Sequence record: NZ_CP019922.1
Strand: one strand, 5' to 3'
DNA from: a plasmid
Length of the DNA: 16,800 nucleotides
Part shown: positions 1 through 14,021 of the stretch, in pieces
Position numbering within the stretch: the first letter of the stretch is position 1
Layout of the letters: the number at the start of each line of letters is the position of its first letter
Program-made: the position numbers and the translations under genes
The notes under the pieces: model-generated
Told to the model about the DNA's origin: nothing
Databases searched by the model: none
The model's input: the letters and a program-made list of their open reading frames with translations, nothing else

Positions 1-906
1 TTACTTATAATAGCTATATACTACGAAATATACAAAAGAAAAATATATAAATGCCGTTTATATAAAATTACTTGGATTAGAAAAACAGGGAAAATTATTT
101 CCTATAAACCATCAAAAAATATAAAAACTTTCAAAAAGTATGAGGGAAAAAGTATTAATTTACATCCCCCCAAAAGAAAAAATTTGAAAATATTTTATAA
201 CACCAAACTTTTAAAAAGTAACAACCCTAACAAATATTTTCTCAAGTGCAATCTATTAAAATTGGTCAAAATGCCATAACGTTTGAAGAGCTTGCAATCA
301 AATATATAAAAATCCAATAATATTGCCTAGCAAATCTTATTATTTTAAAATTTTAAAAAAACAAATCCTAACTATGTCTTAAATCTGGATCAATATAATT
401 TATTTAAAACATTAAATAAAGATTATATAGATAATATACTTATTATTTTTAATTCAAAGCCTAGAAGAGAAAAAAAGAATGCCCATTAAATGTAACAAGA
501 TAAGTAAAAAAGAGGAAACAAAAAAATTTTTTGTGTGGAAATTTTTCAAAAAAATAACATAGTTAAAAAGGCATTTAAAAACACTCTCAAATATTAAAAT
601 TATAACATGCATTTATATAAATGCTACAGAACTATCGATAAACAAAAATGGAATTTTTTAAAAATTGAGATAGACTAAAATTGAAGGAGAATTAAAATTT
701 TTATGACAGCAATAATCGTGTATTCATGCTTGACTATGTGTGTAATATATTTTCACTTGCAACTAAAAACATTTTTCACAAAATTAATCAGATTTTGTAA
801 AAAATGTTTTGATATTTTTTTATTATTAATAGAAATGTTAAAATTAATTTTTTATCTATTAATTATTAATAATAAGTTTTATATATTTATTATAATATCA
901 ATAGCT

Positions 907-956
907 TTAATTACAATCAATACAATGATTTAACTTATTGTATTGATTGTAATTAA
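907..956. repeat. Perfect 20-bp inverted repeat with a 10-nt spacer (TTAATTACAATCAATACAAT - GATTTAACTT - ATTGTATTGATTGTAATTAA)
   Basis: Exact reverse-complement arms read from the sequence. No flanking U-run. It lies at the upstream edge of repeat copy A. Confidence 0.85.
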
Positions 957-974
957 GCCAAATGTATCCAACAA

Positions 975-2340
975 GCTAACTACTATTTCTAAATCAAAGA
1001 TCATTAAAATAACTTATTGCTTCATCTCATATGATAACTTTTTAAATTATTTTTTATTAAGACCGGCCATCCGCCAAAACATAATCCCCCAAACCTTACT
1101 TTAGGAAGTTCTTACCTTGGTTTTTTATTTCTTTATAAAAAGAAAGTCTTAAGATTTAAAATTGCATTTAAATCTCTATCATACATATTGAAACTTTACT
1201 AAAACATTCCTTTTTGTATAAAATTAATTGATTAAATTCCCTATCATTATGTTTTTATAATTGACTAAAAAGTAATAAGACAATTTACATAAAAAGTCTT
1301 TTCTTTGAATTTAATTTAAACTTTTCTTATACAAATTAGCAACCCTTAATCTAGATTTAACTCTATTAATAGCGCCCTTTGTCTTTTTAATAGTTTTCTT
1401 CCAGTATTTTTAAGTTTACTTTTATTTTTTATAAATATTTAGAATGATTGTTTTTTTACTTTCACGACTCTTTTTTATTATTTTTTTTATTGTTATTTTT
1501 AATATTTAAGCTCTCAACTACTACTGAAATATAATATTTATTATCGGTATTTTTTCTACTACTAAATTTTTAATAACTTTATTATTATAATGATCCTATG
1601 TAGACATAACTTTACAAATCCTATTTTAGATAAGCTTTATATTCATTTTCTATTCTTATTGGGTTTTTCATTTTATATTTAGGAAATCCTTACGTTTTGC
1701 TTCCCTTTTTAATTTATCTAAAAAATTATTATCTGCGAGGCTTTAATCAATCCATGCACAAAAAAGAGTTAAAGTATTAATCTCCTTTAAGAGTGAAAAT
1801 TTATTTTTATATTTGCCTAGATTAATGCTAAAACTTTTCTTGTTTTTTTATAAGAATCTTTCCTATCACTTAACATTTTGTCATACAAAAATCTTACAAA
1901 TCTAAATACTTTTAAAAATTTTTTTGATTAGTGTTAGAATATATTCTGTTTTTACAAACTTTATCGGCACTTATATACTCTATTATTTTATAATAATTAC
2001 TTAGTGTATATAGAAATGAGATAGCTTTTAATAATCACTGCATATATTTAGTTAATTATCCCCCCCCCCCGAGTACTAGTTACTAACCATAGACACAAAT
2101 GATGAGCTTATGCCCTGTCTCACAAAATAATACTTTTATATTCCTTATGGAAAATAACCATTAATGAATTAAATTGCAATAAAGATCACATTGCCAATAT
2201 TCAATCTTCTAAATTCATCAATAATTTAATACAATATCTTCATCAAAGCTTATAAGAAAAAATATTCTAATTATTTATGCATTGCTGAAAATCTTATTTT
2301 TAATCTAAAAACTACTGACTTATTTATACTAGAGAGAAAG
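975..2340. repeat. Degenerate dispersed repeat, copy A (pseudogene-remnant family), immediately downstream of the partition cassette
   Basis: Shares ordered blocks with copies B, C and D, at about 70-80% identity with indels. One block is 'TAAGATTTAAAATTGCATTTAAATCT' (1150-1175). Another is 'ATCTTACAAATCTAAATACTTTTAAAAA' (about 1888-1916). A third is 'TTCTAAATTCATCAATAA' (about 2205-2225). Stop-riddled in all frames. Confidence 0.7.
2060..2070. repeat. C11 homopolymer tract
   Basis: 'ATTATCCCCCCCCCCCGAGTACTAGT' is an 11-nt poly-C run in about 27% GC DNA, inside repeat copy A. Confidence 0.9.
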
Positions 2341-2482
2341 TTTTTCCGATATGATCAAAAAGCATATTCGGAATCAAAATAAATCCATTTACTAACAAAT
2401 TCATATCTACCTAAATTTCACAGAAATCATAGGTAGATAATTCTTTATTATTTTTTTGTTAAAAATTTAAATAACAAAATTA

Positions 2483-2752
2483 TTATTTTTTAGAAGCTTC
2501 TATATATTCCATAATTAAAGTTCTTATAAAACCAGAAGCTGTTAATCCCTTTTTGTCTAAAATAGAATAAAATTCAATCCAATATTCATATTTCAGTCCT
2601 ACACTTATTTGCTTGATCGTCATTTTTGATCTAATAGGCTTAACATTTGGAATGTTATTGCTAATAACATCATTATCACGAAAAGCAAATTTAGATTTGC
2701 TAACATTTTGTTTAATAATTTCTTCTAAATTAACCTCTTTGCTTATAGGCAT
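2483..2752 (-). CDS. Small (89 aa) putative ribbon-helix-helix DNA-binding protein, ParA partner (ParG/PF49-like, possibly a truncated paralog)
   Basis: The ATG at 2752 overlaps the parA stop by 10 nt, indicating translational coupling. The C-terminal half 'KQISVGLKYEYWIEFYSILDKKGLTASGFIRTLIMEY' fits a beta-strand / helix / G-x-T-x-S / helix RHH pattern. A basic, disordered-looking N-terminal tail resembles type Ib centromere-binding proteins. Confidence 0.55.
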   Translation of the reverse strand: MPISKEVNLEEIIKQNVSKSKFAFRDNDVISNNIPNVKPIRSKMTIKQISVGLKYEYWIEFYSILDKKGLTASGFIRTLIMEYIEASKK

Positions 2753-3483
2753 AAAGCATCTCCCAATCTTGAAAGTTCTAAGACAGATCTACTCTCCGGA
2801 TAATAATCAAAAATCGACTTCTTATATAGCTGAGATTCTGCTATTTTAGCATCTTGTCCAACCTCATAAAGATCATATCCAAAAGTTTTAAATTGCCTTA
2901 GATGCAAATTATGTCTTTTAAAACTTTTATTAAGCATATTGCAAATAATCTTCTCATGTTTAACCTTTTTTCTATAAGATTTTAACAAAGACTCAAACTC
3001 TTCTTTAAAAATATTAATTCCTTCAAGGCTTAAAAATTCTGGGGTCAGTGGAGTAATAACTTCACACATTGCAAGAATAATTCTTCGCTCCCAAAGCTCA
3101 AAACTGGGAGATAAATCAAAAATTGCAAATTCAAATCCCAATTTCTCCAATTCCAAACAAAAATCATCTATCAAATATGGAAAATCTTGCAATTCATGTT
3201 GCACATCTCTTCTAAAAGTTCCACTCGGCACACATGGCAAAATATAAAAATTTTTTTGTATTTGTCTTACTACTTGATCTACATCCATCTTCTTCAAAAG
3301 AAAATCTTTAATATCCAGCTTAAGAATTTCATGATTAAGAAACCATGTAGAAGAACTTGCTTGCTGTATATCACAATCAACTAATATAACTTTTTTTGTT
3401 TTAGATAAATAACTTGCAATATTTCCGCTTAAGGTAGTTTTCCCAACACCACCTTTTTGAATATGAAATGCTATTTTTTTCAT
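2743..3483 (-). CDS. parA: ParA-family plasmid partition ATPase (Borrelia PF32-type), 246 aa
   Basis: N-terminal deviant Walker A motif 'KGGVGKTT' (MKKIAFHIQKGGVGKTTLSG...). Length and overall sequence are typical of Borrelia PF32 ParA paralogs. ATG start with RBS 'AAGGAAG' about 8 nt upstream. The TAA stop overlaps the start of the next ORF. Confidence 0.9.
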   Translation of the reverse strand: MKKIAFHIQKGGVGKTTLSGNIASYLSKTKKVILVDCDIQQASSSTWFLNHEILKLDIKDFLLKKMDVDQVVRQIQKNFYILPCVPSGTFRRDVQHELQDFPYLIDDFCLELEKLGFEFAIFDLSPSFELWERRIILAMCEVITPLTPEFLSLEGINIFKEEFESLLKSYRKKVKHEKIICNMLNKSFKRHNLHLRQFKTFGYDLYEVGQDAKIAESQLYKKSIFDYYPESRSVLELSRLGDALCL

Positions 3484-3665
3484 ACAAACTTCCTTTTAAT
3501 TATTTTATATCACATATTAATTATTTTATATCACATATTAATTATTTTATATCACATATTAATTATTTTATATCACATATTAATTATTTTATATCACATA
3601 TTAATTATTTTATATCACATATTAATTATTTTATATCACATATTAATTACTTTAATCTCTACCTA
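3484..3665 (-). promoter_or_regulatory. Candidate centromere-like (parC/parS-type) iteron array and autoregulated promoter of the parA-RHH operon
   Basis: The iterons fill the entire space where the parA promoter must lie. On the coding strand each unit reads '...TGTGATATAAAAT...', an extended -10-like element (TGnTATAAA), so protein binding would occlude the promoter. This arrangement matches type Ib partition loci. The call is an inference. Confidence 0.4.
3498..3665. repeat. Tandem direct repeat: 7 perfect 21-bp units 'AATTATTTTATATCACATATT' plus 1 degenerate unit
   Basis: 'CACATATT' recurs at exactly 21-bp spacing, starting at 3511, 3532, 3553, 3574, 3595, 3616 and 3637. An eighth diverged unit lies at 3645-3665. 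The array starts 14 bp upstream of the parA ATG. Confidence 0.95.
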
Positions 3666-3724
3666 TGAAGCCCCTTTCACAAAATTTTTTAATGAATTAG
3701 ATCTGATGTGGCCTTAAAAGCTAG

Positions 3725-4800
3725 CAAACTACTATCTCTATATTCACGGCTTTTGTCTCATTCTACGATAACTTTTTAGTTCTTTTTATATCTTATTTTC
3801 ACACCAATAGCATGATTAACAAGCCTAAATTCGGAAAATTCCTGTCTTAGCTTTTATTTCTTTATAGCAATAAAACTTAAGATTTAGAATTGCATTTATA
3901 TCTTTATTATACAAAACGCTGTAAGTTTACCTAGCACCACTTAATTTTAGAATTGTATTTTTAACACCACAATTACAAATAGCTTGCTTGATGAAAAATA
4001 TATACCTACTTTATACAAAAAGGATCCATACCATTCTGATTTATACTATAATCGTCTTACAAGTTTATAACATCCTAAATTATTAATACTTTACCCAAAC
4101 ATTCACATATCTTTAATTAATAAGTTCTCTATTGCTATATTTTTATAAATAACTATAAAGCAAAAAATACCTTGTGTAAAAAGGTTTTTTGATTTACAAT
4201 TTTCTCATGTAACTTAGTAATTCTTAATATAGATTTAGCTCCATTAATAGAAGTTTTTTGTTTTTTTGATAATTTTTTTAGTATTCTTTAAGTTTATTTT
4301 CGTTGTTTTTTTATTATTAGCTTTAAAAGCTTGCTTATTTTTCTTGCTCTTATGTTTAAGAAATCCTTGTGTTCTATCCCTCTTTAAATTTCTCTAAAAG
4401 AATTTATATATAGAGCTTAAGTCAATCCATGCATACAAAAGGCCAAACTATAAACTTTTTTTAGCAATAGAAGCTCTTATTTATATTTATTTGAACAAGT
4501 AATAAGATTTTGCTTATTTTTTTTAATAAAAATCTATCTTGCCGCTTTAACACTGTATTATATAAAAATCCTACACATCTAAATACTTTTAAAAAGTATT
4601 TCTTTTGGTTGGTGTTAAAATATATTCTGTACTTATAAATGCCAACCTTCTCTTTGCCAAATAATACTTATTTTATGTTCTTTATAGAAAAAAGAACTTT
4701 TATTAAAAAAATTTAAATTATGATAAAAATAAAATTCATTTATCACCAGAATTTACTTACAATATTTAACCTTCTAAATTAATTAATAATCTAAAAACGG
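3725..4800. repeat. Degenerate dispersed repeat, copy B (with internal sub-duplication), immediately upstream of the iteron array
   Basis: Same orientation as copy A. Block 'TAAGATTTAGAATTGCATTTATATCT' (3878-3903), a second sub-copy at about 4050-4330, and 'CTACACATCTAAATACTTTTAAAAAG' (about 4575-4600) are all co-linear with copy A. Confidence 0.7.
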
Positions 4801-4960
4801 CACCTAAGCTATTGTCTTATCTATATTAGAAGCCTCTACCGATATCATAAAAAGTATATTCAGAGCTAAAAATAAATCTATTTTACAAACCTACCCCCCG
4901 CCCAAATTTATTTTGAAATTTAGGCGGGCAATTCTTCATTATTCTTTATTAAATTTATAA

Positions 4961-4995
4961 AAAGTCCTAAGAAATTTCTCTCTTAAGGACTTTTT
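4961..4995. terminator. Bidirectional terminator-like hairpin (GTCCTAAGA / TCTTAAGGAC) flanked by A5 and T5 runs
   Basis: A 9-10 bp stem with one bulge and an 8-nt loop, followed by TTTTT on the plus strand and preceded by AAAAA, which gives a U-run on the minus strand. No adjacent upstream ORF, so its role is unclear. Confidence 0.3.
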
Positions 4996-5077
4996 ATAAA
5001 TGGTTAAAGGTTAAAGATAAGTTAAAATCTACAACAGTTTAGAAAAAAAACAAAATTAAAAATATTTTTTTTATTTA

Positions 5078-5121
5078 TACTATGTATTAATTGATATATA
5101 ATATCAATTAATACATAGTAT
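5078..5121. promoter_or_regulatory. Near-perfect palindrome (about 20-bp arms, 3-bp centre) overlapping the promoter of the 5155 ORF; candidate operator
   Basis: 'TACTATGTATTAATTGATAT-ATA-ATATCAATTAATACATAGTA' ends about 30 bp upstream of the ATG. A -10-like 'TATATTATA' follows it. Confidence 0.45.
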
Positions 5122-5154
5122 TATATTATATTAATATATTTTTAAAGGATAAAA

Positions 5155-5817
5155 ATGCAAAAAGAAATAACAATAAACTATAATGAATATACAATTGGGG
5201 GCATAAAAGGAACTTTCTTTGGAAATTCTCAATATGAAGCTAATTATCGAGCAAAAATAAATGGCTTTATAATTGACTTTTTTAAAATTCCCATAAGTTT
5301 AAAGAAAAAATATGAACTTAATATTAAAGCCCTTAGTGATCCTAATTTTTCATCCACAAATATTGCAATGAATTGCATAAATACTTTCAAGCTTATAGTT
5401 GATATTGTTAATATGCAAACCGGTGAAAATTACGATTATGACACATTTATTACCAAAACAGACACAGAAAAAATGCTTAAATATGGAACAAAAATAATTG
5501 CCGCACTAGCAAGGCACTTCGACGAACAAAACAAAACCAACTTTAATGAAAGCTATTATGAATGGGAAAAAGGCTGGATAGATAAAAAATGGATAAATTA
5601 TGAACCAACTGCAGAAGAAATTAAAGAAATTCAAATAATGAATCAAAAATTAAATCCTTTAAAACTCAAACATAGAAAAAAAAACCTTAATAACGGCCAA
5701 ATAAGGCTTTTACAAGCCATCAATAAAATTGAAGATCAATCACAACAACAGGCTACTAAATCAAATAGCAAAACTAAAAAATTAAAAGGAAATCATGGGG
5801 AAAAAACCAAAATTTAA
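5155..5817 (+). CDS. Hypothetical basic protein, 220 aa (possibly a BBD18-like lp17 regulator; identity not verified)
   Basis: Clean ATG with RBS 'AAAGGAT' 4-10 nt upstream. Very long ORF for AT-rich DNA. Lys-rich C-terminus. A terminator-like hairpin lies downstream. The position relative to PF32 and PF57/62 recalls bbd18 of lp17; this is from memory only. Confidence 0.6.
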   Translation: MQKEITINYNEYTIGGIKGTFFGNSQYEANYRAKINGFIIDFFKIPISLKKKYELNIKALSDPNFSSTNIAMNCINTFKLIVDIVNMQTGENYDYDTFITKTDTEKMLKYGTKIIAALARHFDEQNKTNFNESYYEWEKGWIDKKWINYEPTAEEIKEIQIMNQKLNPLKLKHRKKNLNNGQIRLLQAINKIEDQSQQQATKSNSKTKKLKGNHGEKTKI

Positions 5818-6104: not shown

Positions 6105-6575
6105 ATGCTTTAAGATTTAAATTACTATTTCTAAATCAAAGATTATAGAAACAAATCCTCGATTTATTTCATGGCAGCTTTCTAAACTATTTAAAAGAAC
6201 AGTATTTACCAATACATGATCTAGCCTTACTTAAGGCAGCTCCTGTCTTAGCTTTTATTTCTTTATAAATAAGACTTAAGATTTGGATTTGAATTTAGAT
6301 TTCTATCACTTAGAACTACAACTGCCAAAAGGCCAACTGGTTTCTCTTAATTTTAGAGTTGTATTTTTAATACCATAATTACTACATAGTTTACTTAATA
6401 GGAAACATCTATCTGCTTTATGTAAATAAAATCCATAACAACTTAATTTATATAATAATTATCTTGCGACTCTCTATACCACCATAAACCACCAATACTT
6501 TTCTTTTGCTATACAAAAATCTTACAGATCTAAATACTTTTGAAAATTTCTTTTGGGTTTAGAATATCAATAATT
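6105..6575. repeat. Degenerate dispersed repeat, copy C
   Basis: 'CTAAATCAAAGATTATAGAAA' (about 6128), 'TAAGATTTGGATTTGAATTTAGATTTCT' (6278-6305) and 'ATCTTACAGATCTAAATACTTTTGAAAA' (about 6520-6550) lie in the same order and orientation as in copies A and B. Confidence 0.7.
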
Positions 6576-6913
6576 AATTTTCAATTTTTATTTAAAAGAA
6601 TGATAATAATTTAATGCATTATTTAGGGTTTATGAAATAATATTTTTGCATTTCTTATTCGTTTATATTTCTTTATAAGAATATATAATTTTGTTCGAAT
6701 TCTGCTTTAAAAAATGGTTAATTTAGAATATAATTCTAATGGCTAAAATGCTAAAAATGGATATAAATTTGGACTAATTTTATTATATTGAAAAACAAAT
6801 TATCTGTATATACTACAATAATGCTTAACTTTAAATTTTTAAAATGTGTTTACTTGTGCTTTATGGTTTTTGTAAGGTTAATTTTAATAATCAAATTTAG
6901 GGGAAAGAAATTT

Positions 6914-7210
6914 ATGAATAGAAAATTTGTTATTTCATTATTATTTATAATATTAACTTTTTTATTAATATTGGGTTGTGATTTATCAATAAATAACGAT
7001 CGAAACAAGATAGATGGGGCTTCTCATTTTAAAAAGAAATATATGGATAATTTGAATTATCAATGTTTAAGCAAAAAAGAGTCTGAGGCTAAAAATTCTC
7101 AAATTAAACTGGATGAGAATAATAATAAAAATCATTTTTATTCTTCCAGAGTATCTAATGTTTCAAATTACTATGATAGAACTCATATATCTTGCAAAAA
7201 AAATGATTGA
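6914..7210 (+). CDS. Small lipoprotein, 98 aa
   Basis: Internal ATG of the listed 6788-7210 ORF, preceded by RBS 'AGGGGAAAG' about 8 nt upstream. The N-terminus 'MNRKFVISLLFIILTFLLILGC' is a classic spirochaetal lipoprotein signal with lipobox LILGC. Confidence 0.6.
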   Translation: MNRKFVISLLFIILTFLLILGCDLSINNDRNKIDGASHFKKKYMDNLNYQCLSKKESEAKNSQIKLDENNNKNHFYSSRVSNVSNYYDRTHISCKKND

Positions 7211-7421
7211 TTTTTTTTGAAAAATAAAAGCATGCTTTGTTTACAATCTGATTTTAAAAAATTTTAGTTTAGTTGGTAAATATGAGTTTTTCAGTGTCTT
7301 TTTAATAGAAATGCATATATATATATGAACTGTAAGAAAATATATTAAATGTTCCTAAAGTAAAAAAATTCTTAGAATAGGGCCTATATATAATAATACT
7401 TTTTATATATGTAAATAGCAA

Positions 7422-8534
7422 TTAATTTTGATTAATTTTAATTTTGCTGATTCTTTTAAAACCTTTACTGTTAGAAAAAATAATACTTACTCTTTTTTCG
7501 TTATTAATAATCTTTTTATTTTCTTTTTCATAATTACTTCTATATTGTTTTTTTAAATTTTTATTTAAAAACGTTTTTTTAAATCTTTTTTCCCAAATTT
7601 CATAAAAGTCATTTGTTCTGTCAGTTTTTCCATTCATCATCCATATTTTTTTACTATACTTATTTTTAAACTCTTTTATAAAATGATTTGAAATGTCTTC
7701 AATTTTATATTCTTCCTTATATTTTTCTATTGCCAACTTTAAGTTTCTTAATGCATTTATATAGGTTTTTTCATTGTTGCTTATTTTAAGTATTTTTGTT
7801 ATTTGCATTTTTTCTATTTTGTGAACTTCTACTAACTTGTTTGCAATATATTCTTTGTAAGAAATTTTATTTATTTTTCCATTATTTTTTTCTATAGAAT
7901 TCTCTATCTTATTTATACCTTTTATACCTTTAGGTATAACATCCGCAATTGATTCATCTGCAATTGAGCTTTTAGGTTTTATATTTCTTATATTATTCTT
8001 GTTTATAGTATTGTTGATTTCCTTGAAAAAATCAGATACTATTTTTTTATCTTTTAAATATTCTTTTATTTCTTTATTAATTGCTTCCTGAATAATTATA
8101 AAGCGGTGTTTCCAAAGATTTTTGTTTTGTATATAAAATGCAAAGCTTCCGTTATCTTTGCCTAAATGTTTTAGTTTGGTTTTTATTAAGAGTATTTGAT
8201 TTAAAAATGATATATCATATTCTAAGGTCCTGATTGATATTTTTTTATTATCTTTTGCAAGGCATTTATTAACTATATTATGTATTTCTATTGTGGAATA
8301 TGTTTTAAGTTTGTTAGATTTATAGTATTGTTTGTTTTTAAGGTCAATTGCCCAGCATACTTTGAGTATTCGTTGGTATATGGCTCTTTTTTTAGTTAAA
8401 TATGATTTTAGCCTTGAGCGTTTTAATTCTATTAAATTAGAGCTTGCGTTTTTTTGATTGTACTTTATAATTTCTTCTAATGTTATGAGATTATTAAAAT
8501 TTGTATTGACATTATTTTTTATTTTTATTATCAT
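7422..8534 (-). CDS. Borrelia PF57/62-type putative plasmid replication initiator, 370 aa
   Basis: Size, Lys/Asn-rich composition and overall sequence resemble Borrelia PF57/62 plasmid-maintenance paralogs. ATG start with RBS 'AGGATAAG'. It stands alone, without adjacent PF50, PF32 or PF49 genes. Confidence 0.75.
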   Translation of the reverse strand: MIIKIKNNVNTNFNNLITLEEIIKYNQKNASSNLIELKRSRLKSYLTKKRAIYQRILKVCWAIDLKNKQYYKSNKLKTYSTIEIHNIVNKCLAKDNKKISIRTLEYDISFLNQILLIKTKLKHLGKDNGSFAFYIQNKNLWKHRFIIIQEAINKEIKEYLKDKKIVSDFFKEINNTINKNNIRNIKPKSSIADESIADVIPKGIKGINKIENSIEKNNGKINKISYKEYIANKLVEVHKIEKMQITKILKISNNEKTYINALRNLKLAIEKYKEEYKIEDISNHFIKEFKNKYSKKIWMMNGKTDRTNDFYEIWEKRFKKTFLNKNLKKQYRSNYEKENKKIINNEKRVSIIFSNSKGFKRISKIKINQN

Positions 8535-8546
8535 TATCTTATCCTG

Positions 8547-8581
8547 GCTTCTGAAGTTAAATTTGTTGTGGTTTCAGAAGC
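8547..8581 (-). promoter_or_regulatory. Stem-loop in the leader of the PF57/62 gene, immediately upstream of the RBS
   Basis: 9-bp perfect arms 'GCTTCTGAA ... TTCAGAAGC' separated by 17 nt, located at -13 to -47 relative to the ATG on the coding strand. Confidence 0.4.
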
Positions 8582-8689
8582 TTTTTCAATTATTTGGCTT
8601 GCATTCTAAATTCTTACTGCATCACAAACGAAATAATTAGCTTTTTACTATATTCTATAGCAATGTTTTTAAAATGTCAATATGATAGA

Positions 8690-9016
8690 TTATAAAATAT
8701 GACCCATCTTTTTTGAAGCAATTTGTATTTCGTGTTTTGTAGATTTTCGGCTCATTATTTTTTTTGCTTGTTCAATTCTTAATTGAATTGTTTCTTTCAT
8801 GCTATTTGTAATAGGTTTGGGTCTTCTAAAGTCCATTAGAAAATATGTGCAAAAATCTTCTAAAAGGTAAGGACGGTTGTCTACATGGATTGCGCATTTT
8901 AAAATTTTTGATTTTTTAGATATAGTATTTTTGCTAATTGAAAGATTATAAGAATCTTCTAATATATTTTGGAATTCTTTTAAAGAATAAAGTCTTACAC
9001 CGTTAATACTTAACAT
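8690..9016 (-). CDS. Hypothetical protein, 108 aa, upstream of the PF57/62 gene on the same strand
   Basis: ATG start with RBS 'TGAGG' 6-10 nt upstream. No recognisable motif. Confidence 0.55.
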   Translation of the reverse strand: MLSINGVRLYSLKEFQNILEDSYNLSISKNTISKKSKILKCAIHVDNRPYLLEDFCTYFLMDFRRPKPITNSMKETIQLRIEQAKKIMSRKSTKHEIQIASKKMGHIL

Positions 9017-9168
9017 AAATACCTCATAATTTCATTTTATTATATATTGCATGTTAGTTTCAAGGATGTTAGGTTATATGTTGAATACTTTTGTTAGGGT
9101 GTTTGTCAAGAGCTTATTAGATTATGTAGCTTGGGCAGATTGCAGTAATTTGTCTTTCCAAAAAAAAA

Positions 9169-10122
9169 TTACAATAATGTGATATTTTTAAGAAATGGGG
9201 TTACATTTGAAGCTTGGTTTAAGTATTTTTTTTCAATTTTATCTTCTAATAAGGTGATATCGATTCTGATACAGCTATTTTCTTGTATAATATTGATGTC
9301 ATTTAATATAAAGTCTAAGTCATTTAAGTTTAAATTTTTAATCAAAAAATTTGTTCTTTCTAAGAAGATTAACTTTATTTTACCTCCCAACCCATTCTTA
9401 TTCTCAATAAAAGATCTTAATGTTTTTAGAATTTTTTGTTTATTGTTGATAGTTTTTATTTGATTTGAATTTGTTAAAACTAGTTCTTCGTAGATTTTTG
9501 TGCTTAGATTTAGCAACATTCTATTCGTTGTTTTAGTGTTCGTATTTAAATTTTCATTAGTTTTTATATCTGCGGTATTAAGAGTTTTAATATTTGAATA
9601 GCTGATTTTTGTTAAAAACGGAAGTTTAATAGTCTTATCGATGCCTTTTAATAGTAAATTAACTTTTTGGTTGTTTGCTTTGTTTTCAAAAAGGTAAGTA
9701 TTGTTATTTTTTATAATAGGAATAAACGCATTTTCTATATTTTCTTTTCTATAAATAGATCCAAGTATTTTAAGTTCGATTAAGTAAATTTCATCTTTAT
9801 TGATAGCTTTTAAGTCAATTGTGTAAACTTTGACTACCATCATGTCATAAACTATTTTTAGTTTTTCTTCACTTACATAGTTAATATAAAATTCAAGTTT
9901 TCCCTTTAGAATGTCTTGTGGTAATTTAGAAAGTTCATTTGACCTTAATTGTAGACTAATAATTCCGCCTTTAAATGTTTTAAGTGCTATATTCTCTTTT
10001 GAATTTGTTTGAATAATTTTTTCAAAATTAAGTTCAAATTTAAAAGCTATTGGGTTGATAATGAAGATTTTTTTGTTTTTTACAAAGTAAGTATTAATAA
10101 TTGACCTTGGGTCAGTATACAC
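9169..10122 (-). CDS. Hypothetical protein, 317 aa
   Basis: Long ORF. GTG start preceded by strong RBS 'TAGGAGAAATC'. The next in-frame ATG is about 93 codons downstream. Asn/Lys-rich with no recognisable motif. Confidence 0.65.
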   Translation of the reverse strand: MYTDPRSIINTYFVKNKKIFIINPIAFKFELNFEKIIQTNSKENIALKTFKGGIISLQLRSNELSKLPQDILKGKLEFYINYVSEEKLKIVYDMMVVKVYTIDLKAINKDEIYLIELKILGSIYRKENIENAFIPIIKNNNTYLFENKANNQKVNLLLKGIDKTIKLPFLTKISYSNIKTLNTADIKTNENLNTNTKTTNRMLLNLSTKIYEELVLTNSNQIKTINNKQKILKTLRSFIENKNGLGGKIKLIFLERTNFLIKNLNLNDLDFILNDINIIQENSCIRIDITLLEDKIEKKYLNQASNVTPFLKNITLL

Positions 10123-10165
10123 GATTTCTCCTATAGATGCACTTTGAAATTTATATAAATTGGGA

Positions 10166-10184
10166 TTAGATATAATCTAATCTT
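10166..10184. promoter_or_regulatory. Palindrome GATTAGAT-ATA-ATCTAATC in the divergent promoter region between the 317-aa gene and the lipoprotein gene
   Basis: Perfect 8-bp arms with a 3-bp centre, about 45 bp upstream of the GTG start at 10122. Confidence 0.35.
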
Positions 10185-10348
10185 TAAATTGGTTTTTGTT
10201 AGAACAACACCTAATAATAATAGTTTTTTAATTTTAATTCAAGCTCTAAAATTAGAATGTTTTTATTTGAATTAATTATATTATTTAATTTTCTAATTTT
10301 TGAGAAATTTTTTTAAAATAAATATAAGATAAACTAAGGGGGGTTTTA

Positions 10349-10927
10349 ATGAATTCAAAATTTATTTTAAAGTATTTTATTTTGGCGTTTTTTTTAGTTT
10401 CTTGTCAAACTTATCAAATAGCTTATGATAGGTTTTCTCAAGTATTAGATTCACAATATGATATTGGGGTAAATTATTCTAGAGATGGAATATTTAAGTC
10501 TGTAATTTCTATTAAATATGATAAATTGAAAAATAAAAGGGAATATTTTATTTTAGTTAGAGTTGAATCTAGAAATTCTAGTCAAATAAAGCCCGAAAAG
10601 ATAATAACAGATACTAGATTTGAGGCTAAAGGAGAGTTGGTTTCAGAGGATAGCAAACGTGTTGTTTATTATAACGATTTTTATGATTCATATTTTCCTT
10701 ATGATTACACAACAGTGATTACTGAAAAAAATATTAAGGTAGAAATTTATAAATTTATTATTTCAGAAAGCGAATTTATAAGATTTGTTGCCTTGGGAAA
10801 TGATAATATAGCAGCATTTAGAATCTATGCGTTCAGAAATGATGTTATTGTAAGTTTTAATAAGATTCCTTTTAAAAAGTTTTTGGATGATTTTAATTCA
10901 AAAGTTAAATTACTTGGTGGCAGTTGA
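10349..10927 (+). CDS. Lipoprotein, 192 aa
   Basis: RBS 'AAGGGGGG' before the ATG. N-terminus 'MNSKFILKYFILAFFLVSC' gives a signal peptide and lipobox LVSC. Confidence 0.75.
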   Translation: MNSKFILKYFILAFFLVSCQTYQIAYDRFSQVLDSQYDIGVNYSRDGIFKSVISIKYDKLKNKREYFILVRVESRNSSQIKPEKIITDTRFEAKGELVSEDSKRVVYYNDFYDSYFPYDYTTVITEKNIKVEIYKFIISESEFIRFVALGNDNIAAFRIYAFRNDVIVSFNKIPFKKFLDDFNSKVKLLGGS

Positions 10928-11061
10928 CTTAAATTTAAATAATTTTTAAGCCCAAGTTAAGTAATTATTTGTTAAAAAGGATATAGATTAAGGGTGTTTA
11001 GTATAAACAAGGTTTTTGATATTAGTTTATTATAATATCGACTTTAAAATGTTTTTAATAT

Positions 11062-11745
11062 CTAATCTTTTGAAAAATTAATAAATTCTAGTATCGCTTT
11101 TTCATTTCTCAGCAAGAATAGCCCTTCCCTTATTCCATTATGGAATTCTTCAAAGGAAATTAAGATTGTTTTTAAATTTTTATCTTTATCATCTATATTG
11201 TCGTAATAAAATATAAAGTAAGGTCTTCCAGTATTATCTTTAAAGCCAAGAAAATTTACAAATATTGCTGTTTCTTGAAAATCTGTTTTTAAATTGTATG
11301 AGTGACCATTTTTGTATAAAAAAATTCCATTTCCTTCAAGATTTTTAATTTCTAAATTATTGATTGTATTTTTAATTTTAGCAAAACTCTCAATTGCTTG
11401 TAAAATATATTTTATTGATGAAAATTTGGTATAGTATATGCGGTTATTGATTTGAAATTCTAAAAAGATTCCGCATTCATTACCGGCTCTAATTACATCT
11501 TGCTCATTTTTAATAGAAGTTGCAATTTTTTTGTCAATAACAAGATTGATTTTGAATGTAGAAATATGGTTTAAGGTTTTTACATTGTTAATTGCTAAAT
11601 TTTCTGCTAGATAGACTTTATAATTAATAAATATCCCTTTTAGATTTTTAATTTTAGCTTGTTTAAATTCATAGTTTATATTTTGAGCATATATTGCCAA
11701 ATTTTTAATCAAAAATATTAAGAATATAAAAGTTTTATTTTTCAT
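11062..11745 (-). CDS. Secreted or periplasmic hypothetical protein with a type I signal peptide, 227 aa
   Basis: ATG start. 'MKNKTFIFLIFLIKNLAIYAQ' has n-, h- and c-regions with an AxA-like cleavage site and no Cys, so it is not a lipoprotein. Confidence 0.7.
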   Translation of the reverse strand: MKNKTFIFLIFLIKNLAIYAQNINYEFKQAKIKNLKGIFINYKVYLAENLAINNVKTLNHISTFKINLVIDKKIATSIKNEQDVIRAGNECGIFLEFQINNRIYYTKFSSIKYILQAIESFAKIKNTINNLEIKNLEGNGIFLYKNGHSYNLKTDFQETAIFVNFLGFKDNTGRPYFIFYYDNIDDKDKNLKTILISFEEFHNGIREGLFLLRNEKAILEFINFSKD

Positions 11746-11959
11746 TATACAACTTATTATATGATAGCAGTCTTGAATAATTTTAGTAAACCTTTTTTAT
11801 AGATTAAGTCTGAAATTTATAAAAATTTTAGTTATAAAAGTAGTTTTTGTTGATTTTTTAGAGAATATGTCTTTCAATATTTTGCAGAGATTTGTGTTAG
11901 ATGATAATCTACTATTTATAAATCAAGGATTATAAAAACAGCTTTTTCCTTTATTCTGG

Positions 11960-12300
11960 ATAGCTATACAATAATTGTCTTACAATTTCATGCAATTCTA
12001 AATCATTAATACTCTTTCTAAACATTCCTTTTTGTATAGCTTTAATTTATAGTTTTCTATTGCTATGTTTTTATAATTAGCCATAAATATAGGCATAAAT
12101 GTGTAAATTCTAAGCTTTCATCTTTTTTTATCCAAATAATACTTTATTTTCTGTTCTGTGTAGAAAAGAACCCTTAATAAATCCAATTATGACAATGATT
12201 ACATTCATTTATTATTAGAATTTGCCTCCAATATTTAACTTTCTAAATTCATCAATAACCCAAAGATAGTAATCTTAAAGATTTATAAGAAAAAATATTT
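11960..12300. repeat. Degenerate dispersed repeat, copy D; its 3' tail forms the left arm of a perfect inverted repeat
   Basis: 'GTCTTACAATTTCATGCAATTCTAAATCATTAATACT...CATTCCTTTTTGTATA...TTTCTATTGCTATGTTTTTATAATTAG' is co-linear with A (1140-1290) and B (4050-4200). The tail 'TTCTAAATTCATCAATAACCCAAAGATAG' matches the tail blocks of A and B. Confidence 0.65.
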
Positions 12301-12665
12301 TATTTATTTATATGAGCATTACTTAAGCCATTATTCTAGCTTTGAATAATATTTGATCTTCTCTGCAAAAATCTAATTTAAAAAAAAATTTTAAAAATAC
12401 ATGGTAATACTCAATTATTGAACTAATAATTGAGTATTAAATATTCTCCTTTTTTAAAATTAAAAGAATTTATTATCAATATTTACTTCATACCATACAT
12501 TCTTTTAAATAAACCTCTTATCTTTAAGGGGTTTTCTTTTTATTAAATCTTTAAGATTACTATCTTTGGGTTATTGATGAATTTAGAAAGTTAAATATTG
12601 GAGGCAAATTCTAATAATAAATGAATGTAATCATTGTCATAATTGGATTTATTAAGGGTTCTTTT
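12165..12665. repeat. Perfect 121-bp inverted repeat (12165-12285 and 12544-12665) with a 258-bp spacer that contains its own 14-bp-arm palindrome (12406-12438)
   Basis: Base-by-base reverse-complement identity of 'AAAAGAACCCTTAATAAATCCAATTATGACAATGATTACATTCATTTATTATTAGAATTTGCCTCCAATATTTAACTTTCTAAATTCATCAATAACCCAAAGATAGTAATCTTAAAGATTTA'. The inner hairpin is 'AATACTCAATTATT-GAACTA-AATAATTGAGTATT'. Confidence 0.9.
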
Positions 12666-12981
12666 ACATAAAGAATTTGCTATGCAATTTTAATTTTTGT
12701 TTGTAATCGCCAATTATTAAAAATAAAATTATTAAAGGGAATTAATGTAAAATTAATTACCTTTAAATATACTTCTTTTAGAGAATATATCATTACTAAT
12801 ATTAATCTATTACTAATGATATTATTAAATTAAAGATCTATAGAAACATCAGTTTACTTATTATTAGAATTAAAGTTTATGTAAATTATAGGTTAAAAAT
12901 TTTTTGTAATCTTTAGTAAGAATGTTAAACCTATCTTTTATTAAAGACAGGCTTTGTATTATAACAATTTCAATATGCAAT

Positions 12982-13203
12982 TTAAAGGCTACTATATATT
13001 GAATATATGTCATTTTTTAGTTTTTCTGCTTCTTTTCTTTTTTCTGAGACTTGATTGCAAATATCTTCTGTATGAGATTTAAGTGCATTTTCATCTGTTT
13101 GTATGTTATTTATATTATTTTGATAGTCTAATAAGAGTTGCTGCATCATTTCTGAGACTGTTGTTTTTGTAGATAAAAATTTTCCCAAATAATATTTAAG
13201 CAA
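12982..13203 (-). CDS. Small coiled-coil-like hypothetical protein (73 aa from a TTG start, or 55 aa from the first ATG)
   Basis: Overlaps the stop of the upstream ORF by 8 nt, suggesting coupling. The start codon is TTG as called. The first ATG is at codon 18-19. Confidence 0.35.
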   Translation of the reverse strand: MLKYYLGKFLSTKTTVSEMMQQLLLDYQNNINNIQTDENALKSHTEDICNQVSEKRKEAEKLKNDIYSIYSSL

Positions 13204-13660
13204 TACAAGATTTAGTAAAGCGTATATTTTTATTTTTTGATTTAATTTCAGTTATTTTTAGGATTTTTATTATTTTAATCATATTTTCTTTATCAATATT
13301 TAATGTTAATAAAATTGAAATAATTTCTTTACATAAAAAGTCACATTTATTGAAATGCTTTATTACTTGATACTTTTCTATTTCGTTAATTTTTCTTTCT
13401 TCTTTTATATTATTATTACAATTCTCCAATTGTACACTACCCATTTTTGTATCAGAATTTTTATTAAAATAGTTGGCAACTCTATTTTGAAATCTTTTTT
13501 CTTTTTTTTCTTTAAAGTGTTGGTTTATCTTATGGTAACAATCTTTTTTAGGATAATTAAGCTTATAATAAATTTCTGTACCCGAATTTACCCCCATATG
13601 TTGATAGTAATTTGTTGTGACTTTTATTTCTTTTTGTAGTCTATAAATATACTTTTGCAT
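13196..13660 (-). CDS. Hypothetical protein, 154 aa
   Basis: Long ORF whose stop overlaps the start of the next small ORF. Charged and Lys-rich. Confidence 0.5.
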   Translation of the reverse strand: MQKYIYRLQKEIKVTTNYYQHMGVNSGTEIYYKLNYPKKDCYHKINQHFKEKKEKRFQNRVANYFNKNSDTKMGSVQLENCNNNIKEERKINEIEKYQVIKHFNKCDFLCKEIISILLTLNIDKENMIKIIKILKITEIKSKNKNIRFTKSCIA

Positions 13661-13889
13661 AGTTCTTAGTGTAGAAATAGTTTGCCCGTTTTTTATAGAT
13701 TTTCATTGAAATAATATAATATGGTTTTTGGGGTATATTTTAGATTTTTGGTATTTAAATAGCTTGTAGAAATAAGAACTATCAATTTATATTTATATTG
13801 GTTATAATTTAGAATATTACTAGATTAATATATCTAGACTTTATTTTCTATTTAATATACAATTAATTAGGAAGCATTATGTGCTCCAA

Positions 13890-14021
13890 ATGGATGATAA
13901 CCAGATAAAGGGCTTTAAGTGGCTTAAGGAAGATAAGTTACTTAAAGCCCTTATCGCATTTATACTAATTTCCCTAATTTACGTTTTATTTTGTTTAGAG
14001 CGTTATATTATTAATTTTTAA
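13890..14021 (+). CDS. Possible small membrane peptide, 43 aa (MDDNQIKGFKWLKEDKLLKALIAFILISLIYVLFCLERYIINF)
   Basis: ATG with 'AGGAAG' about 15 nt upstream. One predicted transmembrane helix. Below the ORF-track length cut-off. Confidence 0.2.
   Translation: MDDNQIKGFKWLKEDKLLKALIAFILISLIYVLFCLERYIINF

Follow-up and report, generated by a model that had tools for sequence, protein, structure and literature searches.

Two groups of described systems come closest to an invertible locus on the linear plasmid lp17 of Borreliella burgdorferi, analysed here in a 16,800-nucleotide stretch of plasmid record NZ_CP019922.1 (the window). The first group comprises the inverted IS10 and IS50 copies of Tn10 and Tn5, and rrn inversions. 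These share with the lp17 locus repeats of more than 100 bp (of mobile-element origin at lp17), the occurrence of both orientations, and homogenisation without a dedicated recombinase. The lp17 locus differs from Tn10 and Tn5 in that its repeats are not whole active insertion sequence (IS) copies but short pieces from within a dead tnpA gene; it differs from these and from rrn inversions in that its 258-bp segment is one complete small RNA (sRNA) gene and that its replicon is a linear plasmid.

The second group comprises fimS with FimB/FimE, the Hin and Gin systems and the Bacteroides invertons. Like the lp17 locus, these have a short segment bounded by inverted repeats and found in two natural orientations. 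Their repeats are about 10-30 bp long, the gene for a dedicated recombinase is close by, and transcription from a promoter within the segment enters a fixed gene outside it. In contrast, the lp17 locus has repeats of 122-142 bp, no recombinase in the scanned open reading frames (ORFs) of the window, and a promoter and product that flip together.

The type of rearrangement is itself well known; the lp17 locus is a further example. Its sRNA gene, SR0726, is bounded by IS remnants and is probably (about 80%) a recombinase-independent invertible segment, the core being flipped by homologous recombination and the arms being homogenised.

The inverted repeat and the orientation of its core

The window is lp17 of the B31 type in reverse complement (full-length reverse-strand match, identity up to 98.6%). 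It is very AT-rich, with a G+C content of 18-30%. Positions in lp17 as numbered in PMC9108270 equal 16803 minus the window position; those in AE000793.2 (B31 lp17) equal 16801 minus the window position and are therefore 2 nt below the PMC9108270 numbering. In AE000793.2 the locus is arranged as in the window. The parts needed to describe it are listed here; BB_D09 is a conserved neighbour and serves as the fixed reference for core orientation.

11062..11745, - strand: BB_D09, 227 amino acids (aa), without a confident Pfam match; gene name from the supplement of PMC10319736
12154..12295: extended left arm, 142 nt, 94% identical to its partner 12534-12675
12164..12285: perfect left arm, 122 bp; tnpA reads on the + strand towards the core; equivalent to nt ~148-269 of a 369-nt IS200/IS605 tnpA
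12286..12543: core (spacer), 258 bp, in either orientation among strains (piecewise BLAST, junction typing)
12544..12665: perfect right arm, 122 bp; tnpA reads on the - strand towards the core; same tnpA segment as the left arm

The original prediction, made from the window alone, placed a perfect 121-bp inverted repeat around a 258-bp spacer. The repeat is real and lies where it was placed; the arms are 122 bp long, and the spacer length stands. A perfect reverse complement of 122 bp within 16.8 kb cannot be due to chance. Homology between the arms continues for 10 nt past each edge with 3-4 mismatches, and mismatches are found only in these outer and inner 10 nt. The whole arm-core-arm structure measures 502 bp; when a 522-nt stretch is folded as single-stranded DNA, the predicted energy is -158.7 kcal/mol, compared with -41.1 +/- 4.4 for shuffled sequences (z = -26.6). 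The structure had been described as free of ORFs of 60 aa or more, and indeed no ORF of 50 aa or more is present within 11745-12982.

Misassembly of this one record had been named as a possible source of the repeat. This can be dismissed: a direct repeat search recovers the 142-nt repeat in 11 of 11 other B. burgdorferi assemblies, and junctions match on both sides in 18 of the 18 B. burgdorferi lp17 records of PLSDB.

The arrangement of the window, in which SR0726 is transcribed away from BB_D09, is termed orientation A; the flipped arrangement is B. In a 3-kb alignment and by piecewise BLAST, the core of ZS7, N40 and B331 is reverse-complemented relative to that of the window, JD1, 80a and B-17/2013. 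A junction query composed of unique flank, arm and the start of the core divides the 18 PLSDB records almost evenly.

Orientation A (8/18): 297, JD1, 80a, B-17/2013, CP094589, CP124078, CP132439, CP031400
Orientation B (10/18): ZS7, Am315, NE_5267, NE_5261, NE_5248, Fr93, N40, B331, CP074063, CP094569

Exact flank-N-core patterns give the same calls; they assign 9 loci to B, and 10 B. burgdorferi loci plus B. finlandensis to A. Seven further NCBI assemblies in which BB_D09 is identical to that of the window, B31 included, are all A (7/7). The suggestion that the locus might act as a recombination hotspot is thus supported; the core is inverted in about half of natural strains.

Both orientations occur on closely similar backgrounds, as seen from the differences from the window in the adjoining sequence:

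ZS7 (B): 0 in the left flank (264 bp), 0 in the arm (122 bp), 0 in the right flank (125 bp)
N40 (B): 4 in the left flank, 1 in the arm, 1 in the right flank
B331 (B): 6 in the left flank, 0 in the arm; right flank not comparable
JD1 (A): 14 in the left flank, 5 in the arm, 3 in the right flank

ZS7 has the flanks and both arms of the window with the core in the opposite orientation. B. finlandensis, which serves as the outgroup, is A. From these sequence comparisons, the pattern most likely requires at least two changes within the species, or exchange between plasmids. Events were counted from the segments that adjoin the repeat; a neighbour-joining tree of the left flank is unreliable, the B31-type BB_D09 being mosaic. 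Orientation also varies outside B. burgdorferi: with BB_D09 as the reference, B. californiensis, B. mayonii and B. afzelii have the flipped core, while B. bissettiae, B. americana and B. andersonii have orientation A.

The orientation differences could themselves be artefacts of assembly, as short reads cannot orient a 258-bp core between perfect 122-bp repeats. Reads of less than ~150 nt cannot bridge flank, arm and core, and some public assemblies are based on short reads. Presumably, however, the Sanger reads behind B31, N40, JD1, 297 and ZS7 would span the 502-bp structure. In addition, the calls are consistent within groups: orientation B is found in all six European ZS7-like records, and orientation A in all four assemblies that have the left-end gene content of the B31 type. 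Artefact is a very improbable explanation, the more so as the inversion in N40 was reported explicitly from finished sequence; in Casjens 2012 (PMC3303823), a 259-bp inversion at bp ~8000 of N40 lp17 is listed among small rearrangements. It is the same rearrangement as the core flip that separates N40 from B31, JD1 and 297.

In the lp17 section of Casjens 2012, no mention is made of flanking repeats, of the content of the segment, of recurrence or of a wider distribution. The study of SR0726 and the bbd07 region of lp17 by Crowley and Bankhead 2022 (PMC9108270) does not discuss the flanking repeat, an IS origin, inversion between strains or conservation in relapsing-fever species; the terms 'inverted', 'inversion', 'palindrom' and 'promoter' occur nowhere in its text. 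Telomere-to-telomere assembly papers that mention 'inversion' have hairpin telomeres as their subject, not the lp17 locus. A link of the N40 inversion to the repeat or to SR0726 was not found in the literature searched. Several links appear to be new: the transposase origin of the arms, the recognition that the SR0726 unit is the invertible segment, how often each isomer occurs, and the concerted evolution of the arms. Popitsch 2017 and Casselli 2019 are reportedly further sources on the SR0726/bbd07 region, beside Crowley and Bankhead 2022.

Origin and age of the arms

The arms were compared with a tnpA gene of B. mayonii lp28-3 (122 aa, Pfam Y1_Tnp 115 bits). Three sites in the window are relevant.

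12064..12334, + strand: left tnpA (Y1 transposase) pseudogene remnant, TnpA residues 17-106; the longer copy
12532..12676, - strand: right tnpA pseudogene fragment, tnpA nt 138-279; truncated on both sides in B. burgdorferi, longer in other species
4461..4814: second decayed copy of the IS family, with the N-terminus of tnpB at 4461-4625 (- strand) and a tnpA fragment at 4713-4814 (+ strand)

By homology, the arms are identified as inward-facing internal fragments of a dead IS200/IS605 tnpA (Y1 transposase) pseudogene. In tblastn, the left copy is matched at 12064-12144 and 12152-12334 (+ strand, E 8.6e-16); its reading frame is shifted between 12144 and 12152 and is broken by in-frame stops. 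Its conceptual translation scores 31 bits against Pfam Y1_Tnp (PF01797, cut-off 23). The right copy is matched at 12671-12558 (- strand), residues 48-85, with E 8.5e-9. At the nucleotide level (blastn against B. mayonii tnpA, 80% identity), 12084-12323 corresponds to nt 69-307 and 12532-12675 to nt 279-138. An intact tnpA frame, which would denote an active element, is absent from both copies; both are pseudogene fragments.

The arms had earlier been assigned to a dispersed repeat family. This is correct, but the identity of the family had been missed; it consists of decayed IS605-type elements with divergent tnpA and tnpB. Arm homologues are present in 126 Borrelia plasmid records, several of them under genes annotated as 'tnpA: IS200/IS605 family transposase'. 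In the second decayed copy, the tnpB N-terminus (HTH_OrfB_IS605 23.4 bits, cut-off 21) is divergent from the tnpA fragment, and tnpB divergently adjoins tnpA homology in the B. mayonii copy too. The other copies in the window had been put at 70-80% identity; this agrees with the 76-78% found for the arm homologues at 4657-4795 and 2194-2266.

Two other derivations of the arms were considered and rejected. The arms are not the start of a lipoprotein-like gene, for which the outward 'GGAGG...ATGAATGTAATC...' would provide a ribosome binding site and start codon; the opposite strand is the tnpA fragment. They are also not an IS left end or the region 5' of tnpB, being internal to tnpA. Derivation of SR0726 from an IS end was rejected as well; downstream of tnpA in the better-preserved B. 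mayonii copy, only chance AT-rich matches are found.

As the arms are internal to tnpA, they are not terminal inverted repeats. The proposal of a miniature inverted-repeat transposable element (MITE) fails on this point: the arms correspond to tnpA nt 138-279 and not to the ends of an element, and the arm-core-arm unit is not dispersed. A more general form of this proposal, in which SR0726 is the cargo of a mobile MITE-like or composite-transposon unit, draws on the composite-transposon layout (two inverted IS copies flanking a cargo) and on the wide dispersal of the IS family. Against it, the arms are internal gene fragments rather than termini, all IS copies in the window are pseudogenes, and the SR0726 block is single in each Lyme-group lp17 record listed. 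It is double only in relapsing-fever records among those listed, and the double-copy case examined, B. miyamotoi lp12, is an inverted dimer in its entirety. Among the Lyme-group lp17 records listed, the core too occurs once per record; only arm sequence is dispersed. IS200/IS605 elements transpose as single strands via subterminal hairpins and do not have terminal inverted repeats, so that a composite of two inverted copies is not expected to move. No obvious direct repeat is seen by eye around 12154 and 12675; a target-site duplication, looked for by eye at 12144-12153 and 12676-12685 with no formal test made, is likewise not obvious. Overall, a mobile unit is highly unlikely.

The perfect identity of the arms had been attributed to a very recent inversion-duplication. 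If such a duplication had taken place in this strain, the arms would be perfect for want of time to diverge, and their 100% identity over 122 bp does stand apart from the 76-78% of the other copies in the window. The distribution of the repeat refutes this explanation, which is left with almost no credibility. No B. burgdorferi lp17 examined, the 18 records of PLSDB included, lacks the repeat, and B. finlandensis, B. californiensis, B. mayonii and B. andersonii have it in forms that are longer or carry other deletions. Furthermore, strains are distinguished by up to 6 arm positions, and most of these differences are common to both arms. In several species the architecture around SR0726 is the same (tnpA remnant, SR0726, inverted tnpA remnant), with lineage-specific deletions:

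B. finlandensis: arms of 183 bp, 97.3% identical to each other
B. californiensis: arms of 268 bp, 95.1% identical to each other
B. mayonii: arms of 352 bp, 97.4% identical to each other, made up of the region upstream of tnpA and the first ~80 nt of tnpA
B. andersonii: arms of 72 bp (surviving fragments 72-78 bp), 90.3% identical to each other
B. americana: outer left arm lost, only the inner part of about 77 bp left as a repeat

The longer arms of B. finlandensis and B. californiensis also speak against recent duplication; in both species, neither the 3' end of tnpA nor the end of the element has been lost from the right copy.

Orthologous arms of B. burgdorferi and of B. finlandensis, B. bissettiae, B. 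californiensis and B. americana are 82-88% identical, and over all species comparisons the range is about 82-91%; within a genome, arm-to-arm identity is 90-100%. In the comparison with B. finlandensis, the left flank is 92.7% and the first part of the core 85.8% identical. Arm orthology is no better than that of adjacent DNA, which indicates that the arm sequence itself is not under constraint. Selection on a structure such as a cruciform, another of the early suggestions, is thus without support; arm sequence drifts between species as fast as neighbouring DNA, and what is kept up is only the match between the two arms of the same genome. B. andersonii does not discriminate here, since its fragments are ~90% alike both mutually and to the B. 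burgdorferi arm.

Gene conversion, which had been offered as an alternative to recent duplication, accounts better for the data, as arm variants are mostly common to both arms of a genome. Eight arm positions are variable among seven B. burgdorferi strains; the variant is found in both arms at 5/5 positions in JD1, 4/4 in B-17/2013, 4/6 in 80a and 1/2 in N40. Judged from sequence, this pairing of variants within strains is the signature of gene conversion and concerted evolution, and the perfect identity of the arms in the window is a steady state, not youth. Mismatches at the 10-nt arm edges would fit the ends of conversion tracts. For these decaying plasmids, 100% repeat identity is a sign of ongoing gene conversion and not of recency.

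The simplest mechanism for the inversion can be proposed from these properties. The inverted arms of 122-142 bp would recombine by general homologous recombination, with RecA as the presumed agent; a reciprocal crossover would flip the core. Mismatch repair of heteroduplexes (gene conversion) would repeatedly erase differences between the arms, and the arms of this strain would be perfect because such differences are repeatedly removed. A Pfam scan of the 16.8-kb window, confined to its 10 largest ORFs, yields no recombinase domain; a recombinase encoded on another replicon could act in trans. The domains recognised by the scan are ParA, Borrelia_orfA (once in an intact gene, once in a fragment) and, as a fragment, PFam54_60.

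The SR0726 gene and the effect of inversion

The 258-bp core is the bbd07/SR0726 locus, which is known and has been studied experimentally, a point that the original prediction missed; it contains a conserved upstream region, the 98-nt sRNA and a terminator.

12230..12546: published 317-bp 'bbd07 intergenic region', lp17 4257-4573 (mapping derived here)
12334..12436, + strand: conserved upstream region of SR0726; conservation within the Lyme group begins at ~12334-12342, that with relapsing-fever species at ~12378
12405..12439: palindrome with 15-bp arms and a 5-nt loop, TAATACTCAATTATT-GAACT-AATAATTGAGTATTA
12418..12431, + strand: candidate extended -10 region TTGAACTAATAATT, which matches TTGGACTAATAATT of the ospC promoter; putative in function
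12430..12546, + strand: bbd07, a discontinued ORF annotation with a TTG start, 38 codons and a stop, exactly 117 bp
12437..12534, + strand: SR0726, 98-nt sRNA, lp17 4269-4366 in PMC9108270, mapped via the bbd07 start codon
12511..12544, + strand: intrinsic terminator of SR0726, a 10-pair stem at 12511-12534 followed by TCTTTTTATT; ends at the inner edge of the right arm

SR0726 is among the few Borrelia sRNAs with a reported infection phenotype (PMC9108270). Deletion of SR0726 attenuates infection and its overexpression abolishes infectivity; deletion of the 317-bp region abolishes colonisation of the heart (PMC9108270). The 317-bp fragment, in which the entire core is flanked by the innermost 56 bp of the left arm and by 3 bp of the right arm, complements on its own in cis and over-expresses the RNA in trans (PMC9108270). 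The bbd07 ORF was defined in the same study as starting at a TTG at lp17 bp 4373, with 117 bp on the minus strand, and is experimentally not the functional product. For the SR0726 transcript, dependence on the Rrp2-RpoN-RpoS pathway is reported (PMC9108270).

The predicted fold of SR0726 has an energy of -15.8 kcal/mol (z = -3.55). One terminator-like site is found in the region, compared with 0.1 expected. An Rfam scan of 11000-14000 finds no family, the only match being a chance one to a miRNA (E 0.49). In Petroni 2023, SR0726 was entered manually, as no 5' or 3' end lay within 75 nt of the earlier annotation; the portion of the 3'-end table retrieved contains no lp17 end between 3711 and 5048.

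The region upstream of SR0726 resembles the promoter of ospC, the sequence of which was verified on B31 cp26. TTATTGAACTAATAATTGAG upstream of SR0726 and TTGTTGGACTAATAATTCAT of ospC are identical at 17 of 20 positions around TAATAAT. Local alignment to the ospC promoter scores 40, compared with 23.7 +/- 3.9 for shuffled sequences, and 2 of 500 shuffles score as high. The predicted transcription start is at 12436-12438, ~6-8 nt past the -10 region; this fits the reported 5' end at 12437. The 98-nt species could therefore be a primary transcript from an RpoS-type promoter, given the ospC-like -10 region, the matching 5' end and the reported dependence on the RpoS pathway.

The palindrome inside the core had been noticed earlier as a hairpin with 14-bp arms around GAACTA. 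It is real and slightly longer than described; the spacer as given carried one surplus A, the true spacer being GAACT. It covers about -33 to +3 of the proposed promoter. By analogy with the palindromes next to the ospC promoter, it may be an operator-like or hairpin element. The ospC promoter on cp26 shares with the proposed promoter of SR0726 a near-identical -10 region, reported RpoS dependence and a long perfect palindrome adjoining the promoter. The two differ in placement: the palindrome of ospC is upstream of the -35 region, whereas that of SR0726 overlaps -35 to +3.

The SR0726 block is conserved well outside the Lyme group, with homologues on the following small plasmids:

B. miyamotoi lp12: 85% identity
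B. hermsii lp12: 87% identity
B. turicatae cpD (5.1 kb): 89% identity
Reptile-associated Borrelia sp. RT1S lp83: 89% identity
B. anserina lp10: 91% identity

In an alignment of 13 sequences from Lyme-group, relapsing-fever and reptile-associated Borrelia, ~75 nt of the transcribed region (12437-12511, from ATTAAATATTCTCC to TTCTTTTAAAT) are invariant except for one B. miyamotoi base. The terminator stem is remodelled yet kept in relapsing-fever species. The palindrome is unchanged in 8 Lyme-group sequences; in relapsing-fever species its pairing is largely kept, with 90.8% of cells paired and 2 compensatory pairs. In the predicted SR0726 structure, the 5' UUCUCCUUUU stretch is unpaired and is a possible anti-Shine-Dalgarno seed. 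The invariance of SR0726 speaks for a core function that is conserved and goes beyond the phenotype described in mice. No mention of its conservation beyond the Lyme group was found in the literature searched that names SR0726.

In B. miyamotoi pZSt-lp12 (NZ_CP114737.1, 1-11890), annotation shows the 11.9-kb linear plasmid to be an inverted dimer. Its genes at 42-5510 are mirrored at 6382-11850 with the same protein accessions; hence it has two copies of the SR0726 homologue.

The core holds SR0726 in full, from promoter region through RNA to terminator, and the 317-bp fragment works out of context; expression is therefore expected to be largely unchanged by the flip. The inversion is most likely a neutral structural polymorphism, a by-product of IS remnants rather than a programmed switch.

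The contrary case is that of a phase-variation switch, in which the repeats exist to flip SR0726 at appreciable frequency and orientation alters its expression or action, giving population heterogeneity in a virulence regulator. SR0726 points towards BB_D09 in orientation B; in A it points towards an opposite-strand PFam54 pseudogene. Orientation might act through convergent or antisense transcription from the flanks, through read-through into BB_D09 in orientation B, or through supercoiling at an RpoS-type promoter. A switch would agree with the two orientations being common in nature and differing between plasmids with identical flanks, and with the critical dosage of SR0726 in vivo (PMC9108270). 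It would also agree with the retention of the inverted-repeat architecture around SR0726 in at least five North American species, in which different arm segments survive. Nevertheless, a programmed switch is unlikely. The promoter and terminator lie within the flipped segment, and the 317-bp fragment suffices in cis and in trans (PMC9108270). The 10 largest ORFs of the window do not contain a recombinase domain, and the arms are decayed transposase fragments with 82-88% identity between species. B. afzelii and B. bissettiae lack one arm and have a fixed orientation.

In a related proposal, the IS-derived arms would form a recombinase-independent flip-flop that keeps populations mixed, orientation would tune the level or timing of SR0726, and the persistence of the layout would reflect selection. 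Tuning would then be via antisense or convergent transcription from the flanks or via the local topology of the linear plasmid, and strains such as B31 and N40 would owe part of their differing tissue tropism and immune evasion to the flip-flop. This too is unlikely.

Several points weigh against inversion by general recombination as a neutral by-product. All evidence for inversion comes from comparison of consensus assemblies. The B31-type lp17 is a mosaic, with BB_D09 resembling that of JD1 and near flanks resembling those of ZS7, so inter-plasmid exchange could explain part of the orientation pattern. The role of RecA is an assumption. Finally, the inverted-repeat layout persists around SR0726 in several species despite heavy decay, and B. 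mayonii uses a different part of the IS; such persistence, not predicted by neutrality, may be a hint that the invertible state is under selection.

Laboratory strains have opposite arrangements at SR0726, with B31, JD1 and 297 in orientation A and N40 and ZS7 in orientation B. This is relevant to strain comparison, allelic exchange and polymerase chain reaction assays. Repeated failure to complement by allelic exchange was reported in PMC9108270; as a speculation, the flanking perfect repeats may be the cause of such failures.

Sequence around the repeat

The DNA to the right of the repeat is a graveyard of pseudogenes and is variable among strains. It includes the following fragments:

12982-13203, - strand: C-terminal fragment of a PFam54/CRASP-1-type lipoprotein gene
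13196-13660, - strand: truncated Borrelia_orfA fragment (plasmid maintenance, PF02414)

In plasmids of the B331 type, the right-hand region is replaced from a point 20 nt inside the right arm. The B31-type lp17 also has a mosaic appearance. At informative sites, BB_D09 of the window (11062-11900 segment) belongs with the JD1 clade; from ~11900 rightwards (compared over 11900-12950), the window is identical to ZS7-type plasmids. On this sequence evidence, the mosaic of BB_D09 and flank implies probable recombination between lp17 lineages near the repeat.

Two RNA features near the repeat are listed in the supplement of Petroni 2023. An RNA 3' end at lp17 5048 (- strand), equivalent to window ~11755 (+ strand), is antisense to BB_D09 and immediately precedes the start codon of that gene. 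The sRNA SR0725, which is very abundant, is located at lp17 2882-2990, equivalent to window ~13811-13921 on the + strand.

Elsewhere in the window, eight tandem copies of a 21-bp unit, TTAATTATTTTATATCACATA, are present at 3454-3675 and adjoin decayed IS605-type sequence. This tandem-repeat site is named the d20 pseudogene in Casjens 2012 (PMC3303823), where the copy number is given as 8 in B31, 18 in N40, 8 in JD1 and 13 in 297.

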